A stretch of 64,000 nt of DNA from an uncultured Thermoleophilia bacterium (GCA_963709635.1 CAVPXA010000028.1:70020-134019), one strand, 5' to 3'. Counted from the first letter of the stretch, positions 10,832 through 25,932 are shown. Made by a program: numbers and translations. Notes: generated by a model from the sequence alone, not told the origin.

Positions 10832-10863
10832 GTGCGGCGCCGGGTGGCCGGCGCCGGAGGGCT

Positions 10864-10908
10864 GACGACGAGGGGGCGGGCTGCCGTGCAGCCCGCCCCC
10901 TCGTCGTC
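10864..10908. terminator. Bidirectional terminator hairpin between the lipoprotein gene and pyrE
   Basis: 21-bp perfect stem gacgacgagggggcgggctgc / gcagcccgccccctcgtcgtc with a 3-nt loop. Confidence 0.5.
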
Positions 10909-10942
10909 CGTGCCCGGCGCCGCTGCGCCGGCGTGCCCGCGC

Positions 10943-11473
10943 CTACTCCGGCTTCTTGATGCCGAGCGACGTGGCGGTGAAGAGCGGGTCGAAGGTGAGG
11001 CCCTTCTCCTCGATCTGCGCACGGCCCCCTTCTTCGCGGTCGACCACGCAGATGAGCGTGGAGACCTCGAGGCCCGCCTCGCGCAGCTTGTCGGCGGCCA
11101 TGAGCGCGGCGCCGCCGGAGGTGACCACGTCCTCGACCATCACGACCTTCTGGCCCGGCTCGGCCTTACCCTCCATGGCCTTGTCGGTGCCGTAGCCCTT
11201 GGCGCCCTTGCGCACGATGACGAACGGCTTGCCGCTGGCGAGCGAGACGGCGGCGACGATGGCCACCGCGCCGAGCTCGGGGCCGGCGAGCAGGTCGAAC
11301 GGCTCGTAGGCCGGCAGCTTCTCCGCGATGCCGGCGGCGATGTCGCGCAGCAGGTCAGGCTGGGTCGAGAACAGGTACTTGTCCAGGTAGAACTTGCTGC
11401 GCCGGCCGGACCGGAGGACGAAGTCGCCCTCCAGGTAGCTGGCGTCGAGCAGGCGCTGGCCGAGATCCGACAC
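10943..11473 (-). CDS. pyrE: Orotate phosphoribosyltransferase
   Basis: 176 aa. GDFVLRSGRRSKFYLDK and PRPP-binding VVMVEDVVTSGGA. TAG stop. Confidence 0.9.
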   Translation of the reverse strand: MSDLGQRLLDASYLEGDFVLRSGRRSKFYLDKYLFSTQPDLLRDIAAGIAEKLPAYEPFDLLAGPELGAVAIVAAVSLASGKPFVIVRKGAKGYGTDKAMEGKAEPGQKVVMVEDVVTSGGAALMAADKLREAGLEVSTLICVVDREEGGRAQIEEKGLTFDPLFTATSLGIKKPE

Positions 11474-11536
11474 GGGGCTCCCTTCGCTCGTCTGAGGATC
11501 GTGCGGCGCACGACGCGCCGCGCTCCCCAGACTGTA

Positions 11537-12877
11537 TCAGGTGCCGCCGATGGCCATCCCGTCGATGACCACGGACGGCGTGTGGACGCTGCCTCCGGGC
11601 ACCCAGCGCGCGTCGTCGCCGAGCGCGCGGATCGACGTGAGCATGCCGACGATGTCCCCCGCCAGCGTGACCTCGCGCACCGGCGTCGTGAGCTTCCCGC
11701 CCTCGATGAGGATGCCGCTGATGCCCACCGAGAACTCGCCGGAGATCGGGTTGGCGCCCGAGTGGATGCCGACGGCGTCGGTGACGAGCACGCCCTTCTC
11801 CATGCCGGCGACGATCTCGTCCAGCGGCGTCGCCGGACCGGCGACCACCAGGTTGCTCGGGCGCACGCCGGGCAGGCTGGAGTAGCCGCCGCGCATGCCG
11901 TTGCCGGTGCTCGCACGGCCCGCCTTGCGCGCCGTGTACGTGTCGTAGAGGAAGCCCTGCAGCACGCCGCCGGTGATGAGCGGCGTGCGCCCGCACGGGA
12001 TGCCCTCGCCGTCGAACGGCGCGCTGTCCAGCCCGTCCGCGAGCGTGCCGTCGTCGACCAGCTCGAGGAGCTCCCCGGCCACGCGCTCGCCCTCCTTGCC
12101 GGCGAAGAGCGAACGGCCCTTCTGCACGGCATCGGCGGTGAGCGCGGAGCTCAGCACGCCGAAGAACGCGGCTGAGACGAACGGATCGAGGATCACCGGC
12201 GCCTTCATCGACGGGCACTTCCGCGCGCCGAGCAGGCGGGTGGCCCTCCCGGCGGCCTCGGCGCCGACGAAGGACGCGTCCAGGTCCTCGACGGCGCGGC
12301 CGACGGCGTAGGAGTAGCCGGTCTCGACCTGGTCCTCCTCCTCGGCGAGCACGTACGCGAACGCGTAGCACTGGCCGGCGCGGAAGCTGCCGCGCACGCC
12401 GGCCGTGCTGGCGATGAACACCTCGCCGTCACCGTCGACGTACATCGCGTCTTCGACCGTCTTGACGCGCGGGTCGGCCGCGAGCGCCGTGGCCTCGGCC
12501 TCGAGCGCGACGGCGATGCGGTCTTCGTCCGTCGCGGAGGCGAGCCGCGGGTCGTAGGGGTCCACGTCGGCCGGCTCGCCCTGCGGCTGCGGCAGCGCCA
12601 TGAACTCGTCCGGGTCGCTGACGGCCGCGTTGTCGAGAGCGTGCTGCACGACGGCGTCGAGCGCCCCGTCGCTGAGGTCGGAGGTGTACGCGTGGCCCAC
12701 TGCTCCGTCGCGGAACACGCGCACGCCCACACCGCGGCGCTGCGCGGCCGTGAGCTGCTCGACCTCCTGCTGGTACACCTTGATGCGGTGCGAGGTGGAG
12801 CGCTCGCCGAACACTTCCACGTCTGCCGCGCCGCGCGCCTTGGCGCGCTCGAGCACGGCGTCGAGGATCTCGAACAT
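11537..12877 (-). CDS. pmbA: PmbA/TldE metalloprotease-family protein (TldD partner)
   Basis: Start ATG 12877 (MFEILDAVLERAK) overlaps the tldD stop. PmbA_TldD-type C-terminus GANPISGEFSVGISGILIEGGK. Confidence 0.85.
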   Translation of the reverse strand: MFEILDAVLERAKARGAADVEVFGERSTSHRIKVYQQEVEQLTAAQRRGVGVRVFRDGAVGHAYTSDLSDGALDAVVQHALDNAAVSDPDEFMALPQPQGEPADVDPYDPRLASATDEDRIAVALEAEATALAADPRVKTVEDAMYVDGDGEVFIASTAGVRGSFRAGQCYAFAYVLAEEEDQVETGYSYAVGRAVEDLDASFVGAEAAGRATRLLGARKCPSMKAPVILDPFVSAAFFGVLSSALTADAVQKGRSLFAGKEGERVAGELLELVDDGTLADGLDSAPFDGEGIPCGRTPLITGGVLQGFLYDTYTARKAGRASTGNGMRGGYSSLPGVRPSNLVVAGPATPLDEIVAGMEKGVLVTDAVGIHSGANPISGEFSVGISGILIEGGKLTTPVREVTLAGDIVGMLTSIRALGDDARWVPGGSVHTPSVVIDGMAIGGT

Positions 12878-15702: not shown

Positions 15703-16119
15703 TCAGCGCTCGATGACGAACCGCGACGTGATGGGCACGGCGGGCCTGAGCGTGGCTTCGACCGAGCAGTAGCGGTCCTCGGAGAGAGAGATGGCACGCT
15801 CCACCTTGCGCTCGTCGAGGTCGCCCTTGAGGCGGTACACCACCTCCAGCGACGTGAAGCGCTTGGGGTGGTCCTCGGCCCGTTCCCCGCTCACCTCGAC
15901 GTTGAACGACTCCAGCGGCTGCCGCATCTTCACCAGGATCGAGACGACGTCCATGGCGGTGCAGCCGCCGAGGGCCACCGCCAGCAACTCCATCGGCGTC
16001 ACCCCGTTGCCGGGCTCGTCCAGGCCGGAGGCCAGGTCCACGGACCCGTGCGCCGTGGATGCCTCGAACAGCAGTCCCTCGTTCTTCCAGGCGAGCGTCA
16101 CCGGTTCGCTGTGCGCCAT
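15703..16119 (-). CDS. OsmC/Ohr family peroxiredoxin-like protein
   Basis: 138 aa from ATG 16119 (GGAGAGGAGG upstream). GVTPMELLAVALGGCTAMDV ... LSEDRYCSV. Confidence 0.85.
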   Translation of the reverse strand: MAHSEPVTLAWKNEGLLFEASTAHGSVDLASGLDEPGNGVTPMELLAVALGGCTAMDVVSILVKMRQPLESFNVEVSGERAEDHPKRFTSLEVVYRLKGDLDERKVERAISLSEDRYCSVEATLRPAVPITSRFVIER

Positions 16120-16319
16120 CTGACCCTCCTCTCCGCGTCCGCCGTCACGGCCGCCTCGTGGTCCACGATCGTATACGGTGCCCCCAACGCGCCCCCGCGA
16201 ACCGGACTGGATGCGGCGCCGACGACGACGGGCGCCGCCGCGCGAGGTCGGGCAGGACGGCCGAGTCGTATAGAATCGAGGACCCCAGACGGCCCTCAGC
16301 GACCGACCAGGAGTCTCCT

Positions 16320-17405
16320 GTGCGCGACCTCTCACGCGGCGACCGCGGCAAAGAAGTCCTCGACGTCCAGACCCGCTTGCGCGGGCAGGGCTTCGAGCTG
16401 GGCAGAGAAGGCGTCGACGGCTTCTTCGGCCCAAGCAGCGAGGTCGCCGTGCTCGCGTTCCAGCAGGAGCGCGGGTTGCTCGCCGACGGGCGCGTGGGCG
16501 CCAACACCTGGCGCGAGCTCGTGGAGGCCGGTTACGCCCTGGGCGACCGGCTGCTCTACCTGCGCGAACCCCCGTTCCGCGGAGACGACGTGCTGCAGCT
16601 CCAGGTCAAGCTCAACCTGCTCGGCTTCAACGCCGGGGCGGAGCGCGGCGTGCACGACGACGAGGTCGAGCGCGCCGTCCTCGACTTCCAGCGCAACGCC
16701 GGGGTGCCGGCGGACGGCATCGTCGGCGACAGCACGCTCATCAAGCTCGAGGCCGTGCGCAAGGCCGAGTCCGGGCGCGAGGGCAAGAAGATCCCCGAGC
16801 GCGACCGCGGCTGGGTCGCCGCCCGCACGCTCACCGGGCGGTCGGTGACCATCGATCCCGGTCACGGCGGGCCGGACACCGGCTACATCTCGGCGGGCGG
16901 CCTCGCGGAGAAGGACGTCTCGCTGGCGCTCGGCCTCCGCCTGGCCGAGCTGCTCCGCGCCGAGGGCTGCCGCGTGCGCCTCACGCGCGAGACCGACGAG
17001 CGCGTGCCGCTCTACGCCCGCTGCGAGGCGGCCCAGGGCGGCCCGCACGACTTCTTCGTCTCGTTGCACTGCAACGGAGAGGCCTCGCCGGCGGCGCGCG
17101 GCGCCGCCACGTACTTCTTCCAGCGCAGCCACTACTACTCGGAGCACGGCCGGCGCCTGGCCGGATATGTGGGCAGGCGCCTCGAGGCGGCCGGCGCGCC
17201 CTCGCTGGGCCGGTTCGGCCGCAACTACGGTATCCTGCGCGAGACCCGCGCCATCGCCCTGCTGGTGGAGCCGCTGTTCCTCACCTCGCGAGAGGACGAG
17301 GCGCTGGCTCGCCGGCCGGAACAGGTGGAGAAGCTGGCGCGCGCACTGGCGGGAGGCCTGGCCGACTACCTCGCGCGCGTCCCGCTGGAGGACGAGGCCC
17401 CGTGA
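16320..17405 (+). CDS. N-acetylmuramoyl-L-alanine amidase with two peptidoglycan-binding repeats
   Basis: GTG 16320 after AGGAG. Two PG_binding_1-like repeats (GDRGKEVLDVQTRL...DGFFG; GDDVLQLQVKLN...DGIVG). Amidase_3 core IDPGHGGPDTG...SLHCN...LVEPLFLT. Confidence 0.85.
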   Translation: MRDLSRGDRGKEVLDVQTRLRGQGFELGREGVDGFFGPSSEVAVLAFQQERGLLADGRVGANTWRELVEAGYALGDRLLYLREPPFRGDDVLQLQVKLNLLGFNAGAERGVHDDEVERAVLDFQRNAGVPADGIVGDSTLIKLEAVRKAESGREGKKIPERDRGWVAARTLTGRSVTIDPGHGGPDTGYISAGGLAEKDVSLALGLRLAELLRAEGCRVRLTRETDERVPLYARCEAAQGGPHDFFVSLHCNGEASPAARGAATYFFQRSHYYSEHGRRLAGYVGRRLEAAGAPSLGRFGRNYGILRETRAIALLVEPLFLTSREDEALARRPEQVEKLARALAGGLADYLARVPLEDEAP

Positions 17406-18262
17406 CGCCCGACGAAGCCGAAGCCCTGCGCATCCGCCTCACGGCCACGCAGTCGCAGCGCCTGCGTGAGCTCGGCGCCGACCCACTCGTGCTCGACGGG
17501 GCGTTCGCCGACGCCGTCGCTCGCGACGCCGCCTTCAAGCGCCTCGAGACCGACCTCGTGCGCACCGGTCGCGAGCACCTGCGCGAGCTGCGCAAGGGCC
17601 GGCGCGCGCCGCAGCTCGTCGAGCTCGAGCGCGCGCTCAGCGACGCGCTCACCGACGCCGGGTTCGTGCGCGTCGTCACCCCGCTCATCATCGCCTCGGA
17701 CGCGCTCCGCAAGATGGGCATCGAGCACGGCCACCCACTGCGCGATCAGGTGTTCTGGCTGGACGACGGCCGCTGCCTGCGGCCCATGCTGGCGCCGAAC
17801 CTCTACACCCTGCTGCGGCGCCTCGACCGGCACTGGAGCAAGCCGTTCGGCATCTTCGAGATCGGACCCTGCTTCCGCAGGGACAGCAAAGGCGCCAGCC
17901 ACCTCAACGAGTTCACGATGCTCAACCTCGTGGAGCTCGGCAAGCAGGACAAGGACGGCCGCGCCCGGCTCGAGGAGCTGGCCGCCCTCGTCATGGGCGC
18001 GGCGGGCGTCGGTGAGTACGACCTCGAGGTCACGGACAGCGAGGTGTACGGGGCCATGATCGACGTCACCGTGGGCGGAGCCGAGGTGTGCTCCGCCGGC
18101 CTCGGCCCCCATCCGCTCGACGGCAACTGGGGCGTCGTCGACCCGTGGGTCGGCCTCGGCTTCGGCCTCGAGCGCCTCATCATGGCGCGCGAGGGCTATC
18201 CCAACATCGAGCGCGCCGGCCGCAGCCTCAGCTACGTGGACGGCATACGGCTCAATCTCTAG
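17402..18262 (+). CDS. pylS: Pyrrolysine--tRNA(Pyl) ligase, catalytic C-terminal polypeptide (PylSc)
   Basis: 286 aa. CLRPMLAPNLYTLLRRLDR, IFEIGPCFRRDSKGASHLNEFTMLNL, VDPWVGLGFGLERL, C-terminus RSLSYVDGIRLNL. Collinear with bacterial PylSc and the archaeal PylS C-domain as I recall them. GTG start overlaps the amidase TGA (GTGA). TAG stop. Confidence 0.93.
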   Translation: MTPDEAEALRIRLTATQSQRLRELGADPLVLDGAFADAVARDAAFKRLETDLVRTGREHLRELRKGRRAPQLVELERALSDALTDAGFVRVVTPLIIASDALRKMGIEHGHPLRDQVFWLDDGRCLRPMLAPNLYTLLRRLDRHWSKPFGIFEIGPCFRRDSKGASHLNEFTMLNLVELGKQDKDGRARLEELAALVMGAAGVGEYDLEVTDSEVYGAMIDVTVGGAEVCSAGLGPHPLDGNWGVVDPWVGLGFGLERLIMAREGYPNIERAGRSLSYVDGIRLNL

Positions 18263-19001: not shown

Positions 19002-19302
19002 GACCCTGGACTCCTCCCGACTTTGCTCACAACTGTTTACCGCGCAACGAGGTATGGCGGGTGCGGAAGTTCGGGCGGTGACGCCGCAAGCCGGAGAAGC
19101 AGTGGACGGCCACACCCGCCCGGACGCTCCCCCGCGCCCATCTTCTGCACGTGCCCGGGAGTATATCAGCCACATGCGCTGTCAACCACAAGTGCACATG
19201 CTCGCACAAGGTCCAACGTCGTGCCGGGCGGGCGCAGCGCCGCCGCCGGGCCCGGCGCCCCTCGGGGCGCGCCGCCCGGCGGTGCATGCTAGCATCGGAC
19301 GC

Positions 19303-20182
19303 GTGAGGTACCACGGCGCCGTCATCCGTCCCCCCAGCGAGGCAGACAGCCTGATCGTGCAGGTCACGTACGGCTGCTCCAACAACACCTGTGACTTCTG
19401 CGGGACCTACCTCGACAAGCCGTTCGCCGTGCGCCCGTTCGACGAGGTCGTCGACGACGTCACCGGCCTCCCCGTCACCGTGCGCCAACGCGTACGGCGC
19501 GTGTTCCTCGCCGACGGCGACGCCCTGGCGCTCAGCACGCGCAAGCTCGACCAGATCCTCGACCTGCTGCACCGCGCGCTCCCCAACCTGGAGCGCGTGA
19601 GCAGCTACGCCAACGCGCGCAACCTGCTGCACAAGTCCGTCGAGGAGCTCGTCGCGTCTGCGCGAGCGCGGCATCGAGCTGCTCTACCTCGGCCTCGAGT
19701 CGGGCGACGAGCAGACGCTCGCCGACATCCACAAGGGCATGACGGTGGCGGAGCAGATCGAGGGCTGCCGGCGAGCCACGGACGCCGGCATGAAGCTCTC
19801 GGTCACCGCGATCCTCGGGCTGGCCGGCCGGGAGCGCTCCCTGGTCCACGCCGCGGCCACCGGCGACGCACTCTCCGCGATCGACCCCGAGTACATCGGG
19901 CTGCTCACCCTCATGCTCACGCCCGGCACCGCCATGGAGCGCAAGGTCGCCACCGGTCAGGTGGTGCTCCCGGACTCCATCGGGATGCTCCGGGAGTTGC
20001 GGGAGATCGTCGCCCACCTCGACGTCACCGACTGCCTCTTCCGCTGCAACCACGCCTCCAACTACCTGCCCATCGGGGGCCGCCTGCCGCAGGACAAGGC
20101 GGCCATCCTGGCCTCGCTCGACAAGGTGATCGGGGCTCCCGCGGCGACACGGCTCCGGCCGGAGAGCTGGCGGCTGCTGTAG
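19303..20182 (+). pseudogene. Radical SAM protein of unassigned function; 1-nt insertion at about 19657
   Basis: GTG 19303. SLIVQVTYGCSNNTCDFCGTY (CxxxCxxC). The junction reads ...VEELVA|LRERGIELLYLGLESGDEQTL, then continues in ORF 19739..20182. TAG stop. Confidence 0.7.
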
Positions 20183-20241: not shown

Positions 20242-20571
20242 TCAGAGGTCCCGAAGGTGCGAGCCGTACCCCCGCTTGAACTGGGTGGACGCGTACTTCT
20301 GCAGCTTCCACTCGGGGATGCGGCACTGCGGGCAGGCCTCCGCGTACCACTTGTTGCGCAGCCAGCGGGCGGCGCGGCTCGTCTTGGAGTCGTGGACCAC
20401 CATGTGCTTGTTGCAGTGGGTCACCACGACGGCGTAGGAGCCGCGCTCCTCGAACTGCTTGATCCCGTGCAGGATGCCGCGCCGCGACGGCCACAGCTTG
20501 AGCTTCTCGACCAGCCGGAAGAGCGGGACCTGCTTGCGGTAGTAGCGCGCTTTGGTGGGGTCGGTCGGCAT
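20242..20571 (-). CDS. pylSn: Pyrrolysyl-tRNA synthetase N-terminal tRNA-binding polypeptide (PylSn)
   Basis: 109 aa from ATG 20571. LWPSRRGILHGIKQFEERGSYAVVVTHCNKHMVVHDSKTSRAARWLRNKWYAEACPQCRIPEWKL aligns with archaeal PylS residues LWMSRTGTIHKIKHHEV...[31 protein letters not shown], including the Zn Cys/His positions. Confidence 0.85.
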   Translation of the reverse strand: MPTDPTKARYYRKQVPLFRLVEKLKLWPSRRGILHGIKQFEERGSYAVVVTHCNKHMVVHDSKTSRAARWLRNKWYAEACPQCRIPEWKLQKYASTQFKRGYGSHLRDL

Positions 20572-20697
20572 CGGGAGGGCCAGTCTAGCACGGCCGCCCG
20601 CGGCGCCCGCCGCGGCCGCGTCCGGCCGGAGACGGGCAGGACGCGGCACCACCGCGTCGAAGGTTCGGCAACGACCAACTCCGACCCGAGGTGTCCG

Positions 20698-21633
20698 ATG
20701 ACCCGTCGCGCCGCAGCCGGCCTCGGCCGCCTGCTACCGCTCCTGCTGATCGCCGCGGCCGTCGTCGTCGTCACCGGCGCCGCCCTGCTCGCCGCCTGCG
20801 GCGGCTCGTCCGGCGGCGCCTCTCCCGAGCCGCTGGAGACCACCACCGTGACGGCCTCGGGGAGCGGCACGGCGGAGCCGACGGTCACGCCTTCCACGTC
20901 CCCGTCGACGGCGCCGGCCGAGACGGCCCTGCGCATCTACTTCTTGCGCGGCGAGCAGCTCGGCGTGGCCGAGCGGCGGGTCCCGCACACCAGCATGCCG
21001 GCCACGGCCGCCATGGAGGCCCTGCTGGCCGGCCCGACGGCGGCGGAGAGCGCCGCCGGCCTCGGCACCAGCATCCCCGCCGGCACGCGCCTGCTCGGCC
21101 TCAGCATCAAGAGCGGCACGGCCGATGTGGACCTCTCCGGGGAGTTCGGCAGCGGCGGCGGCACCCTGTCCATGACCTCCCGCGTCGCGGAGGTCGTCTA
21201 CACGCTCACGCGGTTCCCGACGGTCCGCGCCGTCCGGTTCCTCATGGACGGCGAGCCGCTCGAGGCGCTCGGCGGAGAGGGCATCGTGCTCGCCGAGCCC
21301 CAGCGCCGCGCCGACTGGCGCGAGTTCGAGCCCAACATCTTCGTCGAGACACCCGGCGCCGGCGCCGTCGTCTCGAGCCCGTTCCTGCTGTCCGGCACGG
21401 CCATGGTGTTCGAGGGCTCGTTCCAGGCGCGCCTCGTCGACTCGTCCGGCCGGCGCATCGTCAACGTCATCATGCAGGCGAGCCGCGGCGCTCCCGGCCG
21501 CGGCCGGTTCGCCAAAGATGTCGCCTTCTCCACCTCCGCCAAGCGCGGCACGCTGATCGTGTTCGACCAGTCCATGGAGGACGGCTCGCGCCAGGACGAG
21601 GTCGAGATCCCCATCACGTTCGCGACCGACTGA
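20698..21633 (+). CDS. Lipoprotein with GerMN domain and Gmad2-type Ig-like domain
   Basis: ATG 20698. Lipobox LLAAC. LRIYFLRGEQLGVAERRV...MEALLAGPT...VDLSGEF...VRFLMDGEPL, then IFVETPGAGAVVSSPFLLSGTA...TLIVFDQS. Confidence 0.7.
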   Translation: MTRRAAAGLGRLLPLLLIAAAVVVVTGAALLAACGGSSGGASPEPLETTTVTASGSGTAEPTVTPSTSPSTAPAETALRIYFLRGEQLGVAERRVPHTSMPATAAMEALLAGPTAAESAAGLGTSIPAGTRLLGLSIKSGTADVDLSGEFGSGGGTLSMTSRVAEVVYTLTRFPTVRAVRFLMDGEPLEALGGEGIVLAEPQRRADWREFEPNIFVETPGAGAVVSSPFLLSGTAMVFEGSFQARLVDSSGRRIVNVIMQASRGAPGRGRFAKDVAFSTSAKRGTLIVFDQSMEDGSRQDEVEIPITFATD

Positions 21634-21935: not shown

Positions 21936-22008
21936 TGGCGGGGAGTGCGGGAGTCACACCCGCCTACGTGGGTTTAGAGCCCACGCTGATCCTTCCGATC
22001 GACCCCCC
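21936..22008 (-). tRNA. pylT: tRNA-Pyl (anticodon CUA)
   Basis: Hand-folded 73 nt: GGGGGGU-C-GAUC-GGAAG-GAUC-AG-CGUGGG-CUCUAAA-CCCACG-UAG-GCGGG-UGUGACU-CCCGC-ACUCCCC-G-CCA. Features: 7-bp acceptor stem with one G-U, a single nt between acceptor and D stems, 5-nt D loop, 6-bp anticodon stem, 3-nt variable loop, T loop without the TPsiC consensus, encoded CCA. These are the tRNA-Pyl hallmarks. Confidence 0.88.
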
Positions 22009-22018
22009 GCGCCCCGCG

Positions 22019-22024
22019 ATTGTA
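22019..22024 (-). promoter_or_regulatory. Candidate -10 element (TACAAT, preceded by TG) for a dedicated pylT promoter
   Basis: Minus-strand ggTGTACAATcgcggggcgc followed by the tRNA 5' G. 10 nt separate the hexamer from the mature 5' end. No convincing -35. Confidence 0.25.
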
Positions 22025-22142
22025 CACCGGACGCGCCGGTGGGTCCGGACGCGGACCAGCGGGCCGTTCCGGCCGCGCGCCGGAGTCGCCGGCGAAGGGC
22101 GGCGCGCGTCGGCGCGGACGACGAGGCGATGGGTGGCGCGCG

Positions 22143-22949
22143 TCAGAGCAGCGCGCGCGCCACCATGACCGCCACGCCGAGCGCGAGCGGCTCGTGCATG
22201 TGGGTCACGCCGAGGACCTCCTGCGCCGCGGCGGTGAACGCCGACGGCATACCGGGGACGGCGGCGATCATCCCCGGACGCACGTCGGCGACGTCGATGA
22301 TGCCGGCCGCCGGGCAGGCGTCGAAGACGAGGTCGCAGCGGGCCAGTCCCTCGGTCAGGCCGGTCTCTTCGAACAGAAGGCCCACCTCTCGCGCGGCAGC
22401 GACGCGCTCCGCGTCCGGCTCGACCACGAGGACGCCCGCGTCACGGGCGGTGAGGCGCCGCACGGCGGCGCGCCCCACGGGACCGAGCCCCAGCACCAGG
22501 ACTTCCCGGCCCGCGAGACCGCCGGAGGCCGCATCGAGGGCGGTCACGTACCCGTCGGCCGTCGCGGGGTCGTCGTCCGTGCTGCGGCCCTTGGTGACGT
22601 TGAGCGCGATGAAGCGGTGGTCGTCGGCGAGAAAGACCACCTGCGCGCCGGCGCCCACCGCCGCCTGGATGCCGCGCACGTCCGGCTGCGTGGTCGCCCA
22701 CGCGTCGCAGCCCAGGTGCAGCAGGGTGGCCACGACGCAGGCCGAGAACCCGGTGATGACCCCCTGGCCGGTGGAGATGGGCACGGCGGCGACGCGCGCG
22801 CCGTGCAACTGCACGCAGCGCTGGTCGTCGACCACGGTGCGCAGCGCGAGGTCGCGCAGCCCGAGCCCGGTGGCGTCGCGCAGACGGTCCTCGACGGCGA
22901 CGAGCTCGCTCGTCAGGTCGGCGACGTCCGCCTCGGTCAGTCGTGTCAT
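22143..22949 (-). CDS. pylD: Pyrrolysine synthase PylD (3-methylornithyl-N6-lysine dehydrogenase)
   Basis: 268 aa. MTRLTEADV..., VPISTGQGVITGFS, FLADDHRFIALN, Rossmann VLVLGLGPVGRAAV, C-terminal EPLALGVAVMVARALL. ATGA overlap with pylC. Confidence 0.9.
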   Translation of the reverse strand: MTRLTEADVADLTSELVAVEDRLRDATGLGLRDLALRTVVDDQRCVQLHGARVAAVPISTGQGVITGFSACVVATLLHLGCDAWATTQPDVRGIQAAVGAGAQVVFLADDHRFIALNVTKGRSTDDDPATADGYVTALDAASGGLAGREVLVLGLGPVGRAAVRRLTARDAGVLVVEPDAERVAAAREVGLLFEETGLTEGLARCDLVFDACPAAGIIDVADVRPGMIAAVPGMPSAFTAAAQEVLGVTHMHEPLALGVAVMVARALL

Positions 22950-24187
22950 CGAAGTCCTCCCTCACCCGGAGTCGCCGTCTCGTCCGCGGCAGCCGGTCGC
23001 AGTCCTTCGTGCCGCGCCAGCTCGGCGACCACATCCGCCGCGCGGATGCGCGCCTCGCTCAGGCCGGGGGCGGCGACGATCAGCGTCGCCGACCAGCCGG
23101 CGCGCCCCGGCGCGTAGTCCGTGAGCGCCTCGTCGGCGCCGAAGAAGCCGGGCACCAGGCGCAGCGGCCCGGCGCTCCCCATCACGTGCTCGCCGAGGAC
23201 CTCCAGCATACCTCGCGAAGCGCGTACATGCTGGTACACGCACGCGCGGCGCGGCGCGCGGTCCACCTCCGGCGGCGCGCCCTCACGCACCGTCCTCTCC
23301 AGCAGTTCGACGATGTTGAGGCCGCTCGACCAGTACACCGCCGTCGGAGTCTGGCTGGGCAGGCGCGCGTCGATCTCCAGGAGCTTGGGGTCGGCGCCGC
23401 GGACCATCACCTCCACGTCCATGAGGCCGTTGAGGCCAAGCCCCTCGGCGACGCGCACCGACGCCGCGTCGAAGGCGTCGAGCACGCCGGCGGCGACGGC
23501 GGCGTCCCAGTCGCAGGCGCCGCCGGGGCCGGCGCACGCCGTCTCCCCGGCCGTCTCGCCCACGGGGGCGACGACGCGGCGGCAGTCGTAGGCCGCGTCG
23601 AACTCGAGACCTGTGACCTGGAGCGGTACGGCACGGCCGCCCCAGGCGAGCACCTCCAGCGAGAGCGACGGGCCGGCCACGTACTCCTCGACCACCACGT
23701 CGTGGCCGCGGCGCTCCAGCTCGCGCCGCGCCGCGGCCAGCGCGGCCTCGTCGTGCACCACGGTGACGCCCTCGCTACCGCTCGCGGTGCTGGGTTTGAC
23801 CACCGCGGGGAACCCGCACGCGGGCCAGTCCAGCGGGCGCGGCACGTCCAGCTCGGCGAACAGCCGCCGCGAGGCCAGCTTGGACGCGGTGACCCGGTAG
23901 GAGTCGAGGTCGAACAGCAGTGGCACGCCCCAGCCGGGCACGCGCTCGGCCAGCCAGGCCAGCGTGGCCTCGTCCTCGAACGCCGGCAGCACGGCGTCGC
24001 AGCTCGTCACGAGGTCGCGGAAGAGGCTCTCGTCGGCGGTCACGTCCACGACGACGTGCCGGTCGGCGAGCCCGGATGCCGGCGGCTCCTCGCGCCGGTC
24101 CACGAGCACGGTCTCCCAGCCCGCCTTGCCGGCGAGGTACGCGGCCTCGGTGCCCTGCAGCTTGCCGCCGACGATCAGGAGGCGCAC
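22946..24187 (-). CDS. pylC: 3-methylornithine--L-lysine ligase PylC (ATP-grasp)
   Basis: Start taken at GTG 24187 (VRLLIVGGKLQGTEAAYLAGKAG), 5 nt after the pylB stop. ATP-grasp core FPAVVKPSTASGSEGV...VVEEYVAGPSLSLEV. The ORF-track extension to 24445 overlaps pylB. Confidence 0.9.
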   Translation of the reverse strand: MRLLIVGGKLQGTEAAYLAGKAGWETVLVDRREEPPASGLADRHVVVDVTADESLFRDLVTSCDAVLPAFEDEATLAWLAERVPGWGVPLLFDLDSYRVTASKLASRRLFAELDVPRPLDWPACGFPAVVKPSTASGSEGVTVVHDEAALAAARRELERRGHDVVVEEYVAGPSLSLEVLAWGGRAVPLQVTGLEFDAAYDCRRVVAPVGETAGETACAGPGGACDWDAAVAAGVLDAFDAASVRVAEGLGLNGLMDVEVMVRGADPKLLEIDARLPSQTPTAVYWSSGLNIVELLERTVREGAPPEVDRAPRRACVYQHVRASRGMLEVLGEHVMGSAGPLRLVPGFFGADEALTDYAPGRAGWSATLIVAAPGLSEARIRAADVVAELARHEGLRPAAADETATPGEGGLR

Positions 24188-24191
24188 ACGC

Positions 24192-25265
24192 TCACCGGGA
24201 GGCCGCGGCGGAGGCCGGACTGCGCACGACGGCCATCCGTTCGCGGTACTCGTCCACGCCGGCCGGACGCAGGCCGAGCCGCTCCAGGTGCGGCAGCACC
24301 CCGTGCACGGTGCGGTAGCCCTCGTCGATGTCGAGCTCGGCCTGCGAGACCCCGGCGAGCCCCATGGTGGGCGGCACGATCGACGTGACCACGTTGGCCC
24401 CGGCCTGCAGGCGGCGCTCCAGGCCGGCGATGCCGTCCACGTCAAGCGACGCCGGGATGAACCTGTCCGGCATCGCCAGCCGCAGGCAGGCGATGGTGAG
24501 CAGCTCGTCGGCGTCGCCGGCAGGGTGCACGTCCTCGAGCGGTGTACCCGCCTGGGGGACGAACGTCATGACCCGCACCTGCTCCCAGCCGGCCTCGCGC
24601 ATGGCGACGATGGAGCCGGCCCGGTCGGCCGGCGTGTCGCCGATGCCGGTGAGCAGGCCGTCCTCCACGAGCAGGCCCGCGCGCCGGGCGGCGGCCCGGG
24701 CGCCGGCGCGCGCCTCGAAGGGCTGCCCCACGCGCAGCCGGTCGTAGAGCTCGCGCGTGTGCGTCTCCTGGTACAGCGCGTACCAGTCGGCGCCCGCGCC
24801 CGCGAGCTCCCCCAGCGACTGCTCCGGCAGCACGCCCGGCGAGACCATGACCGGCGCGCCCGTCGCGTCCACCACGGCGGCGACGAGGTCGACGAGCGTG
24901 GCGGGTTCCGCGAGGACCACGGGGTCCTCGCCCATGGTCAGGTCGAGCAGGACGACGCCCGAGCCCGCGAGGTCGCGGCAGATCTCCACCACCTCGTCCG
25001 TGGTCTTGCGGTACCTCGGGCACTCGTCGTTGTCGGCGCGGTAGAAGCAGAACGCGCACGCGTTGCGGCAGTAGGTGGAGAAGTAGACGAACCCGTAGAG
25101 GAACACGGCGTCGCCGGAGTGGCGCGCGCGCAGCTCGCGGGCCGCGGCGAAGACCAGCGGCGCCTCGTCGCCGGCGCGCAACAGCGCCTCGAGGTCGTCC
25201 CTGTCCGGGACGGCGCCCGCGAGGATGTCGGCACAGAGGCCGGCGACTGAACGGCTGCCGGTCAT
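24192..25265 (-). CDS. pylB: Methylornithine synthase PylB (radical SAM lysine mutase)
   Basis: 357 aa. FVYFSTYCRNACAFCFY, DLTMGEDP, ALYQETHTRELYDRLRVGQ, VEDGLLTGIG, VRVMTFVPQAGTPLE, FIPASLDVDGI..GANVVTSIVPP. Collinear with archaeal PylB. Confidence 0.92.
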   Translation of the reverse strand: MTGSRSVAGLCADILAGAVPDRDDLEALLRAGDEAPLVFAAARELRARHSGDAVFLYGFVYFSTYCRNACAFCFYRADNDECPRYRKTTDEVVEICRDLAGSGVVLLDLTMGEDPVVLAEPATLVDLVAAVVDATGAPVMVSPGVLPEQSLGELAGAGADWYALYQETHTRELYDRLRVGQPFEARAGARAAARRAGLLVEDGLLTGIGDTPADRAGSIVAMREAGWEQVRVMTFVPQAGTPLEDVHPAGDADELLTIACLRLAMPDRFIPASLDVDGIAGLERRLQAGANVVTSIVPPTMGLAGVSQAELDIDEGYRTVHGVLPHLERLGLRPAGVDEYRERMAVVRSPASAAASR

Positions 25266-25269
25266 GGGA

Positions 25270-25932
25270 TCAGCGGAACTCGAGGACGTCCGCGAGCGGG
25301 TGGCGGCTGGTCGGGCGGGGCGGCGTGAGCGGCCGGCCGATGGGCACCACGGCGACCAGGTGCAGCGGGTCCTGCACGCCGAGCAGAGTCTCGATGGCAG
25401 GCGCGGCGAGCACTGGCGCCGTCATCCAGCACGAGCCGTAGCCCATGGCGTGGGCCGCGGTGCAGAGCAACTGGACCGCGGCTCCGATGCTCTGGATGTC
25501 CGGCCGCTGCCGCAGGCGGTCGCGCTCCTCGTAGGGCAGCTTGTGCTTGTACAGCAGCACGTCGGCGAGCGACCGGTACGGCACGCCGAACACGGCCACG
25601 ACCAGCGGGGCCTCGGCGAAGAACGTGGCGTAGGTGCGGTATGCCTTGAGCTCCTTGCCGCGGCCCTCGGCCTCGGGCCACGCCGCCATCTCGTCGATAG
25701 CGGCGTCGACCGCGTCCTTCATCGCCGCGCGCGCGGCGGCGTCCTCGACGGCGATGAACCGCCAGGACTGGGCGTTGCCGGCGTTGGCGGCCCTGATCGC
25801 GAGCCCGACCATGGCCTCGACGTGCTCGCGCGGCACGGGGTCGGGCGCGTACTTGCGCACGCTCGACCGGCCATGGACGGCGTCCGCCAGACCGGTGGTC
25901 TCGAGGCGGGATCTGCTGTGGTGGGCGCTCAC
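25270..25932 (-). CDS. Nitroreductase-family flavoprotein
   Basis: 220 aa. RSSVRKYAPDPVPREHVEAMV..AIRAANAGNAQSWRFI. Its stop is only 4 nt before the pylB ATG. Confidence 0.85.
   Translation of the reverse strand: MSAHHSRSRLETTGLADAVHGRSSVRKYAPDPVPREHVEAMVGLAIRAANAGNAQSWRFIAVEDAAARAAMKDAVDAAIDEMAAWPEAEGRGKELKAYRTYATFFAEAPLVVAVFGVPYRSLADVLLYKHKLPYEERDRLRQRPDIQSIGAAVQLLCTAAHAMGYGSCWMTAPVLAAPAIETLLGVQDPLHLVAVVPIGRPLTPPRPTSRHPLADVLEFR

Follow-up and report, generated by a model that had tools for sequence, protein, structure and literature searches.

The 73-nt element described here, found in a 64,000-nt stretch of DNA from an uncultured Thermoleophilia bacterium (hereafter, the window), is on the evidence of its sequence a genuine and ordinary bacterial class S tRNA-Pyl gene, with charging and UAG decoding as predicted properties. 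We consider it very probable that this gene, pylT, is a functional member of the type that is served by a split PylRS, and that it has its own promoter, consisting of a -10 element only, followed by a 4-nt leader; from the sequence we infer its transcription, processing and charging.

Fold and identity of the tRNA-Pyl gene

ARAGORN reported a single tRNA in the window, whose G+C content is 70.6%. This was a tRNA-Pyl with the anticodon CUA, read from 22008 to 21936:

21936..22008, minus strand: pylT, tRNA-Pyl, 73 nt, anticodon CUA at 21975-21977, CCA encoded (ARAGORN and covariance model)

Divided into its stems and loops, the tRNA reads, 5' to 3', GGGGGGU C GAUC GGAAG GAUC AG CGUGGG CUCUAAA CCCACG UAG GCGGG UGUGACU CCCGC ACUCCCC G CCA. 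The arms comprise a 7-bp acceptor stem, a 1-nt linker (C8), a 4-bp D stem with a 5-nt D loop (GGAAG) that lacks G18G19, and a 6-bp anticodon stem (C24-G42 to G29-C37) closed by the 7-nt loop CUCUAAA, which is invariant among 18 distinct relatives. The T loop, UGUGACU, lacks T54-Psi55-C56 and keeps U54/A58 and purine 57, and both G73 and an encoded CCA are present. ViennaRNA returned the very same cloverleaf as its minimum free energy structure, at -36.7 kcal/mol and with 56% of the ensemble. An earlier reading of this DNA from the sequence alone (the sequence-only reading) had noted the 6-bp anticodon stem, the 1-nt linker, the 5-nt D loop, the UGUGACU loop and the encoded CCA as tRNA-Pyl traits, and all of them are in the sequence.

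To obtain a canonical set for comparison, metagenome contigs were scanned with a pattern of the 72-nt architecture. The scan returned 120 loci, in which ARAGORN made 110 tRNA-Pyl calls; 109 of these were usable, one with an ambiguous base having been dropped. Methanosarcina-type and D. hafniense-like sequences are both included in these 109 genes, and since the pattern requires 7 nt from the D stem to the anticodon loop, the Thermoleophilia type was left out. A covariance model, R1, was then trained on 68 distinct full-length sequences of the canonical 72-nt type, all of them from unrelated metagenome loci and none from the Thermoleophilia lineage. R1 scored pylT at 86 bits (E 4.9e-21) in an alignment that spans positions 1-72 of its 72 and has one inserted nucleotide at the D/anticodon junction, and this was its sole significant match in the 64 kb. 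The fold put forward by the sequence-only reading was thus recovered as tRNA-Pyl by an independently built model. Rfam gave no tRNA match to pylT at the gathering threshold, and its general tRNA model, RF00005, was silent even at E <= 10. The RF00005 miss can be taken to speak against a canonical tRNA fold, but not against tRNA-Pyl identity, because the fold of tRNA-Pyl is known to be non-canonical.

Covariation within the lineage points the same way. There are 19 distinct tRNA sequences across 56 Thermoleophilia loci (the window and 55 relatives, described below), and the sequence in the window is identical in 13 genomes, the window included. Eighteen of the 19 were used, one without a terminal A being omitted. 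In these, 99.3% of cells in the cloverleaf are paired and 8 pairs have changes on both sides; none of 500 shuffles matched the observed values, and slid controls dropped to 37-57% paired. The ARAGORN call, the R1 score, this covariation and the NCBIfam-confirmed pylB, pylC, pylD, pylSn and pylSc genes nearby together uphold the identification as tRNA-Pyl.

Two departures from the consensus were seen among the relatives. A C26.A40 mismatch in the anticodon stem is present in 3 of the 18 distinct sequences (loci L003, L004, L006, L007, L009, L026, and L041), and others have a compensated C-G pair. The tRNA of locus L049 (12229-12300) has CC-G rather than CCA as its 3' end, and an encoded CCA is therefore not universal in Thermoleophilia tRNA-Pyl.

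Bacterial tRNAs that function with a split enzyme (PylSc plus PylSn) have been designated class S (Beattie et al., 2023, PMC7615293), and D. hafniense and the window both have separate pylSn and pylSc genes. Common to the D. hafniense tRNA-Pyl and pylT are the CUCUAAA loop with its CUA, the GGGGGGU acceptor strand with G5.U68, the G1:C72 pair, G73, the D stem GAUC/GAUC, a 5-nt D loop without GG, a single nucleotide at position 8, a long anticodon stem, a T loop without T-Psi-C and an encoded CCA. The single acceptor/D linker nucleotide and the 5-nt D loop without G18G19 are among the unusual traits described for tRNA-Pyl (PMC1851642). The identity set established for the bacterial PylRS of D. 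hafniense comprises G73, G1:C72, G10:C25, A11:U24, and G8 (Herring et al., 2007, PMC1851642), of which G8 is a moderate identity element (PMC1851642). Four of these five are present in pylT, along with the G5.U68 wobble, U54/A58 and purine 57 as further D. hafniense recognition features; the fifth, position 8, is C in the window's tRNA and G in that of D. hafniense. This C is invariant in the Thermoleophilia class, whereas the canonical set (n = 68) has G in 45 sequences, T in 14, A in 8 and C in 1. The T loop of the window also differs from the commonest form, UGAAACU; UGUGACU occurs in 2 of the 68 canonical sequences.

The tRNA-Pyl of the window is 73 nt long, compared to 72 nt in D. hafniense, and has one additional nucleotide at the D/anticodon junction. 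The D stem and the 6-bp anticodon stem are separated here by two nucleotides, A22 and G23, rather than by one. Of these, G23 is paired with U43, which opens the variable loop. A standard pair is formed at 23:43 in all 18 distinct relatives (GU in 8, GC in 7, AU in 2, and CG in 1) and the two positions are never unpaired, which in effect gives a 7-bp anticodon stem and leaves 2 unpaired nt in the variable loop. Of the 68 canonical 72-nt sequences, 43 have a standard pair at the equivalent positions. The 6-bp stem and 3-nt variable loop of the sequence-only reading correspond to the canonical register, in which the variable loop is UAG; when the covarying 23:43 pair is counted, they become effectively 7 bp and 2 nt.

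The pyl gene neighbourhood in Thermoleophilia

The window encodes the other pyl components around pylT, with pylB, pylC, pylD, pylSn, and pylSc all lying within 5 kb of it. These five genes were called with NCBIfam equivalog models, and all scored above the curated cut-offs:

25932-25270, minus strand: nitroreductase, ending 4 nt ahead of pylB
24192..25265, minus strand: pylB (TIGR03910, 435 bits)
22946..24181 (start approximate), minus strand: pylC (TIGR03909, 338 bits; extent by tblastn)
22143..22949, minus strand: pylD (TIGR03911, 189 bits; cut-off 150)
about 20689-21633, plus strand: GerM-like lipoprotein gene, convergent with pylT
20242..20571 (start approximate), minus strand: pylSn, tRNA-binding small subunit of PylRS (TIGR03912, 127 bits)
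about 19300-20182, plus strand: radical SAM gene, adjoining pylSn
17402..18262, plus strand: pylSc, catalytic subunit of PylRS (TIGR02367, 320 bits), its start overlapping the amidase stop

The stop codon of pylD (TGA, 22145-22143) is on the same strand as pylT and is separated from G1 of the tRNA by 134 nt, in agreement with the sequence-only reading. Canonical pyl clusters and the window have the same six components (pylT, pylSc, pylSn, pylB, pylC, and pylD), those of the window within about 8 kb. The orders described for canonical clusters are pylTSBCD in Methanosarcina and other archaea, and pylTScBCDSn or pylSnScBCD in bacteria (PMC3941956). The order in the window is different: nitroreductase-pylB-pylC-pylD-pylT is followed by the convergent GerM-like gene, pylSn, the radical SAM gene on the opposite strand to pylSn, and amidase-pylSc on the other strand. 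In this order pylT comes after pylD, in contrast to D. hafniense, where it comes before pylSc.

PylD has hundreds of metagenomic homologs. A scan of the GTDB representative genomes with a PylD profile identified 57 loci, all of which are from Thermoleophilia or unclassified Actinomycetota MAGs, with PylD identities of 48-86%. In 55 of the 57, ARAGORN placed a tRNA-Pyl gene after pylD in the same orientation. The full synteny (nitroreductase-pylBCD-pylT, convergent GerM, pylSn, radical SAM, and amidase-pylSc) is present in about 40 loci, in which the nitroreductase, the GerM-like lipoprotein, the radical SAM protein and the amidase overlapping pylSc are fixed non-pyl members (25270-25932 to 16059-18262 in the window). 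With this arrangement so common, pylT sits where it normally does in the class, and its placement is no quirk of one genome. Gene orders are very mixed among the 109 metagenome loci with 72-nt tRNAs, and pylD is adjacent to pylT in about 25 of these unrelated loci, so the gene order is neither unique nor new. Two Actinobacteria were already included among 81 bacterial genomes with PylRS (PMC9630628).

Several further observations on these loci deserve mention. Loci L033 and L051 have pylB and pylD but no tRNA-Pyl within 10 kb, and pylC was undetectable in L033; these may be degraded or rearranged pyl clusters. The radical SAM gene of the window is split over two frames, its N-terminal part in an ORF from 18991 and its C-terminal 147 aa at 19739-20182, a pattern suggestive of a frameshift or of misassembly; about 45 loci keep the C-terminal part beside pylSn. 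A search of the 64-kb window for in-frame TAG codons with coding signal on both sides returned only antisense-frame artefacts and adjacent genes, and no Pyl-dependent gene.

A candidate private promoter and its leader

Two short elements immediately upstream of pylT are central to its predicted expression:

22019..22028, minus strand: candidate -10-only promoter, G-n-n-G plus TACAAT (hexamer 22024-22019), with the box present in 56 of 56 loci
22009..22012, minus strand: predicted leader GCGC, with G22012, the 7th nt past the hexamer, as the inferred start

In the window, 10 nt (cgcggggcgc) separate TACAAT from G22008, the spacing from the mature 5' G given in the sequence-only reading. We compared this region between the window and its 55 relatives, a total of 56 loci in which no two upstream sequences are the same. 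Exactly one TAnn[AT]T box is present in the 60 nt upstream of pylT in each of the 56 loci. The box starts 14-18 nt ahead of G1 (a gap of 8-12 nt) and is at -16 (a gap of 10 nt) in 37 of them, the hexamers being TACAAT (31 loci), TAGAAT (8), TATGAT (8), TATCAT (7), and two others. The background frequency of TAnn[AT]T in these 70% G+C loci is 3.3e-4 per position, from which 0.0017 boxes per locus are expected by chance in the 5-nt interval where the box starts. Guanines are conserved directly 5' of the hexamer (51 of 56 loci) and 4 nt 5' of it (49 of 56); columns -40 to -20 and -10 to -5 have only background composition.

The distance of the box from pylT stays fixed while the gap between the pylD stop and pylT varies from 22 to 1580 nt. 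Intervening genes were inspected in 2 of the 11 long-gap Thermoleophilia loci, L039 and L019, and in both a gene for a membrane or secreted protein (11004-12059, minus, and 10842-11498, minus, respectively) lies in the opposite orientation between pylD and pylT. In these two loci pylT could therefore hardly be transcribed from pylD, yet the TAnnAT box keeps its place. A promoter private to pylT, as the sequence-only reading had proposed, is strongly supported as a prediction by these comparisons, that is, by one box per locus throughout the 56 loci against the 0.0017 expected and by its persistence in L039 and L019.

No -35 hexamer (TTGACA) was present 16-19 nt upstream of the box, the best match being 2-3 of 6 positions in most loci, and a scan for two-hexamer sigma-70 promoters near pylT found nothing. 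This arrangement resembles that of mycobacterial SigA promoters, in which TANNNT lies 6-13 nt upstream of the start and a -35 cannot be recognised (Martini et al., 2019, PMC6448022). It is the usual form of SigA promoter in Actinobacteria, for which a -35 is dispensable (PMC6448022). Shared with the actinobacterial -10-only SigA promoters are the TAnnAT hexamer, the lack of a -35 and a G 7 nt downstream, at the start predicted here. Unlike that type, the 4-nt GCGC leader is unusually short and invariant, and the motif is G-n-n-G-TAnnAT rather than TGn. The sequence-only reading had written the element as TG-TACAAT; the window reads GTG-TACAAT, in which the TG abuts the hexamer and is one position too close for a TGn extended -10, and that label was rejected. 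We also rejected a conserved operator upstream of the -10, as the CACCGG-N5-CCGGTG inverted repeat located there is limited to this genome.

GCGC directly precedes G1 in 45 of the 56 loci, and the 7th nucleotide after the hexamer is G in 45 of the 56. Since this 7th base is the first G of GCGC, the predicted leader is 4 nt, within the 3-4 nt of the sequence-only reading. The conservation of GCGC is stricter than a start site requires. Similar leaders are found elsewhere: in 75 distinct bacterial-type canonical pylT genes, purines and pyrimidines alternate over the four positions before the tRNA (-4, A48/G7; -3, T33/C27; -2, A46/G24; -1, T38/C27), and the Thermoleophilia GCGC is the GC version of this purine-pyrimidine-purine-pyrimidine leader. 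An alternating leader may reflect a common constraint of RNase P or of initiation. As a side observation, the -1 pyrimidine of pylT leaders could pair with G73. The canonical pylT genes differ from the Thermoleophilia type in having no shared fixed position for a -10, although L127, L158, and L176 have TATAAT-like boxes at similar distances. Overall, comparison between the loci makes an unusually clean case for predicting both a -10-only promoter dedicated to pylT and a leader of 4 nt.

These features are consistent with the following mechanism. The housekeeping sigma factor would transcribe pylT from its own G-n-n-G-TACAAT promoter without a -35, and transcription would begin at the G located 4 nt ahead of the mature 5' end. 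RNase P would then cut off the GCGC leader, trimming of a pyrimidine-rich trailer would expose the encoded CCA, and PylSc and PylSn would charge the tRNA, after which UAG could be read. If the promoter is private, the supply of the tRNA would be independent of the transcription of nitroreductase-pylBCD, and the uncoupling of tRNA and biosynthesis levels that the sequence-only reading envisaged is a reasonable inference.

Read-through, trailer and alternative explanations

The regions on either side of the promoter and tRNA contain two additional elements that bear on how pylT might be expressed:

22132..22164, minus strand: GC hairpin with 11-bp arms, GGUGGCGCGCG / CGCGCGCCACC, the pylD stop codon in its loop
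21925..21934, minus strand: pyrimidine tract CCUCUUCUCC, starting 2 nt past the CCA

The hairpin over the pylD stop has a z value of -4.2 relative to shuffled post-stop sequence, the strongest of the 57 loci, for which the mean is -0.68 and 16 values are below -1.5. No T run follows the hairpin at 22132-22164, which the terminator scan did not report. It may be a terminator without a U tract or a read-through attenuator, and it probably limits read-through from pylD without necessarily abolishing it. The pylD-pylT spacer is about 100 nt longer in the window than in the closest relative, L036, where the stop-codon hairpin directly adjoins the -10 box. The window's spacer (22009-22142) contains two copies of a 9-nt direct repeat, CGCGTCCGG, in addition to the CACCGG-N5-CCGGTG inverted repeat, which is just upstream of the -10. 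The idea that the extra ~100 nt come from a repeat or a mobile element was considered and rejected: there is no second copy in the window, and the spacer is unconserved in relatives beyond its last 30 nt.

Downstream of the tRNA, a pyrimidine tract begins 2-4 nt after the CCA in 54 loci. Positions +4 to +11 past the CCA are nearly all C or T in these 54 loci (+9 in 54 of 54), and the 30-nt trailer is 64% pyrimidine compared to a background of 49%. The terminator scan found no intrinsic terminator after the trailer. Such a tract suggests a role in 3' processing or Rho loading; endonucleolytic cleavage in mycobacteria has a strong preference for C at +1 (PMC6448022).

No public sequencing runs with this organism were found, the best runs sharing <0.2 of sampled words. 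Metatranscriptome contigs of relatives contain pylT with both flanks and reach past the -10 box, and in three runs pylD is joined to pylT. These bridging contigs have low depth, fit either read-through or DNA carry-over, and show no discrete start. The RNA contig of one relative runs into an Illumina adapter 1 nt past the CCA, evidence too thin to build on.

The most serious competitor to the view that the private promoter is the source of the tRNA is one that retains the promoter and adds to it. Here a constitutive private promoter would supply basal tRNA, and partial read-through past the hairpin would provide more when pylBCD is induced. This dual arrangement, which takes up the two routes of transcription envisaged by the sequence-only reading, accommodates the conserved promoter box, a hairpin without a U tract that is confined to some of the loci (the 16 noted above as falling below -1.5), and the bridging contigs in three RNA runs, and we give it somewhat less than an even chance. 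It meets a difficulty in the loci with an intervening opposite-strand gene; as read-through cannot contribute there, it is unnecessary for function. A further version dispenses with the promoter altogether, and makes pylT the last cistron of a nitroreductase-pylB-pylC-pylD-pylT transcript, freed by RNase P and 3' nucleases, with TACAAT a chance or non-promoter sequence. The shared strand of pylD and pylT in 55 of 57 loci, the many loci in which the gap between them is just 22-60 nt, and the contigs of relatives' RNA runs that bridge the 3' end of pylD and pylT would all fit such a transcript. However, the box recurs at a fixed distance in every locus, far above the chance expectation, it is kept in both of the long-gap loci inspected in spite of the opposite-strand gene, the window has its pronounced hairpin at the pylD stop, and the bridging contigs are of such low depth that they are indistinguishable from DNA carry-over. 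We therefore regard a promoterless pylT as quite improbable.

Two other explanations concern the nature of the conserved sequences themselves. The TAnnAT-N6-GCGC block might be an element acting at the RNA level, with the leader pairing with G73/C74 to guide or delay RNase P, or it might be a protein-binding site. The excess conservation of GCGC (45 of 56) over what a start site needs, the ability of C-1 and G-2 to pair with G73 and C74, and the alternating leader of the 75 canonical bacterial genes are in its favour. But the A/T-rich hexamer matches TANNNT exactly and has a G at a distance of 7 nt, as expected of a -10, the 6 nt that lead from it to GCGC vary, and a box that was part of the RNA would place the start further upstream, where nothing is conserved; this explanation is accordingly improbable in our estimation. 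That pylT is a tRNA-like remnant, in decay or without function, or else a suppressor tRNA that carries some other amino acid, is very unlikely indeed. Its failure to be recognised by the Rfam tRNA model, its C8, unlike D. hafniense, and the lack of a visible UAG-containing gene in the window could be cited for decay, but a remnant would be hard to reconcile with a sequence that is identical in 13 genomes with every stem change compensated, with the 86 bits against R1, or with the complete pylBCD, pylSn and pylSc alongside. We retain, then, a functional tRNA-Pyl gene with a predicted promoter of its own as the preferred reading.

The known picture of the Pyl system is unchanged by these findings, which amount to a well-supported annotation and a comparative promoter prediction, together with modest architectural variation (73 nt, the 7th stem pair, and C8). 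The layout of pylT with its own promoter is normal for the lineage and is no new kind of system. One might go further and propose that the Thermoleophilia tRNA-Pyl is a distinct structural sub-class, defined by its 73 nt, an obligatory 7th stem pair with a 2-nt variable loop, C8, an always self-contained -10-only promoter, and an invariant GCGC leader that can pair with G73-C74, with a core that has co-evolved with PylSn and PylSc. We find this doubtful; if it is true, the pair could be naturally orthogonal to other PylRS classes, and the leader could impose an unusual RNase P processing step.

Within class S, the 73-nt architecture, with its additional junction base, 2-nt effective variable loop and C8, is a shape variant that occurs in nature, and a candidate for orthogonality in genetic-code expansion. 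For the organisms themselves, these loci indicate a complete pyrrolysine-decoding system in an uncultured class of Actinomycetota that is widespread in soil and sediment, with pylT predicted to be an autonomous transcription unit. A tRNA that reads UAG could thus be present whether or not pyrrolysine synthesis is on, which bears on how these bacteria cope with ambiguous UAG codons.
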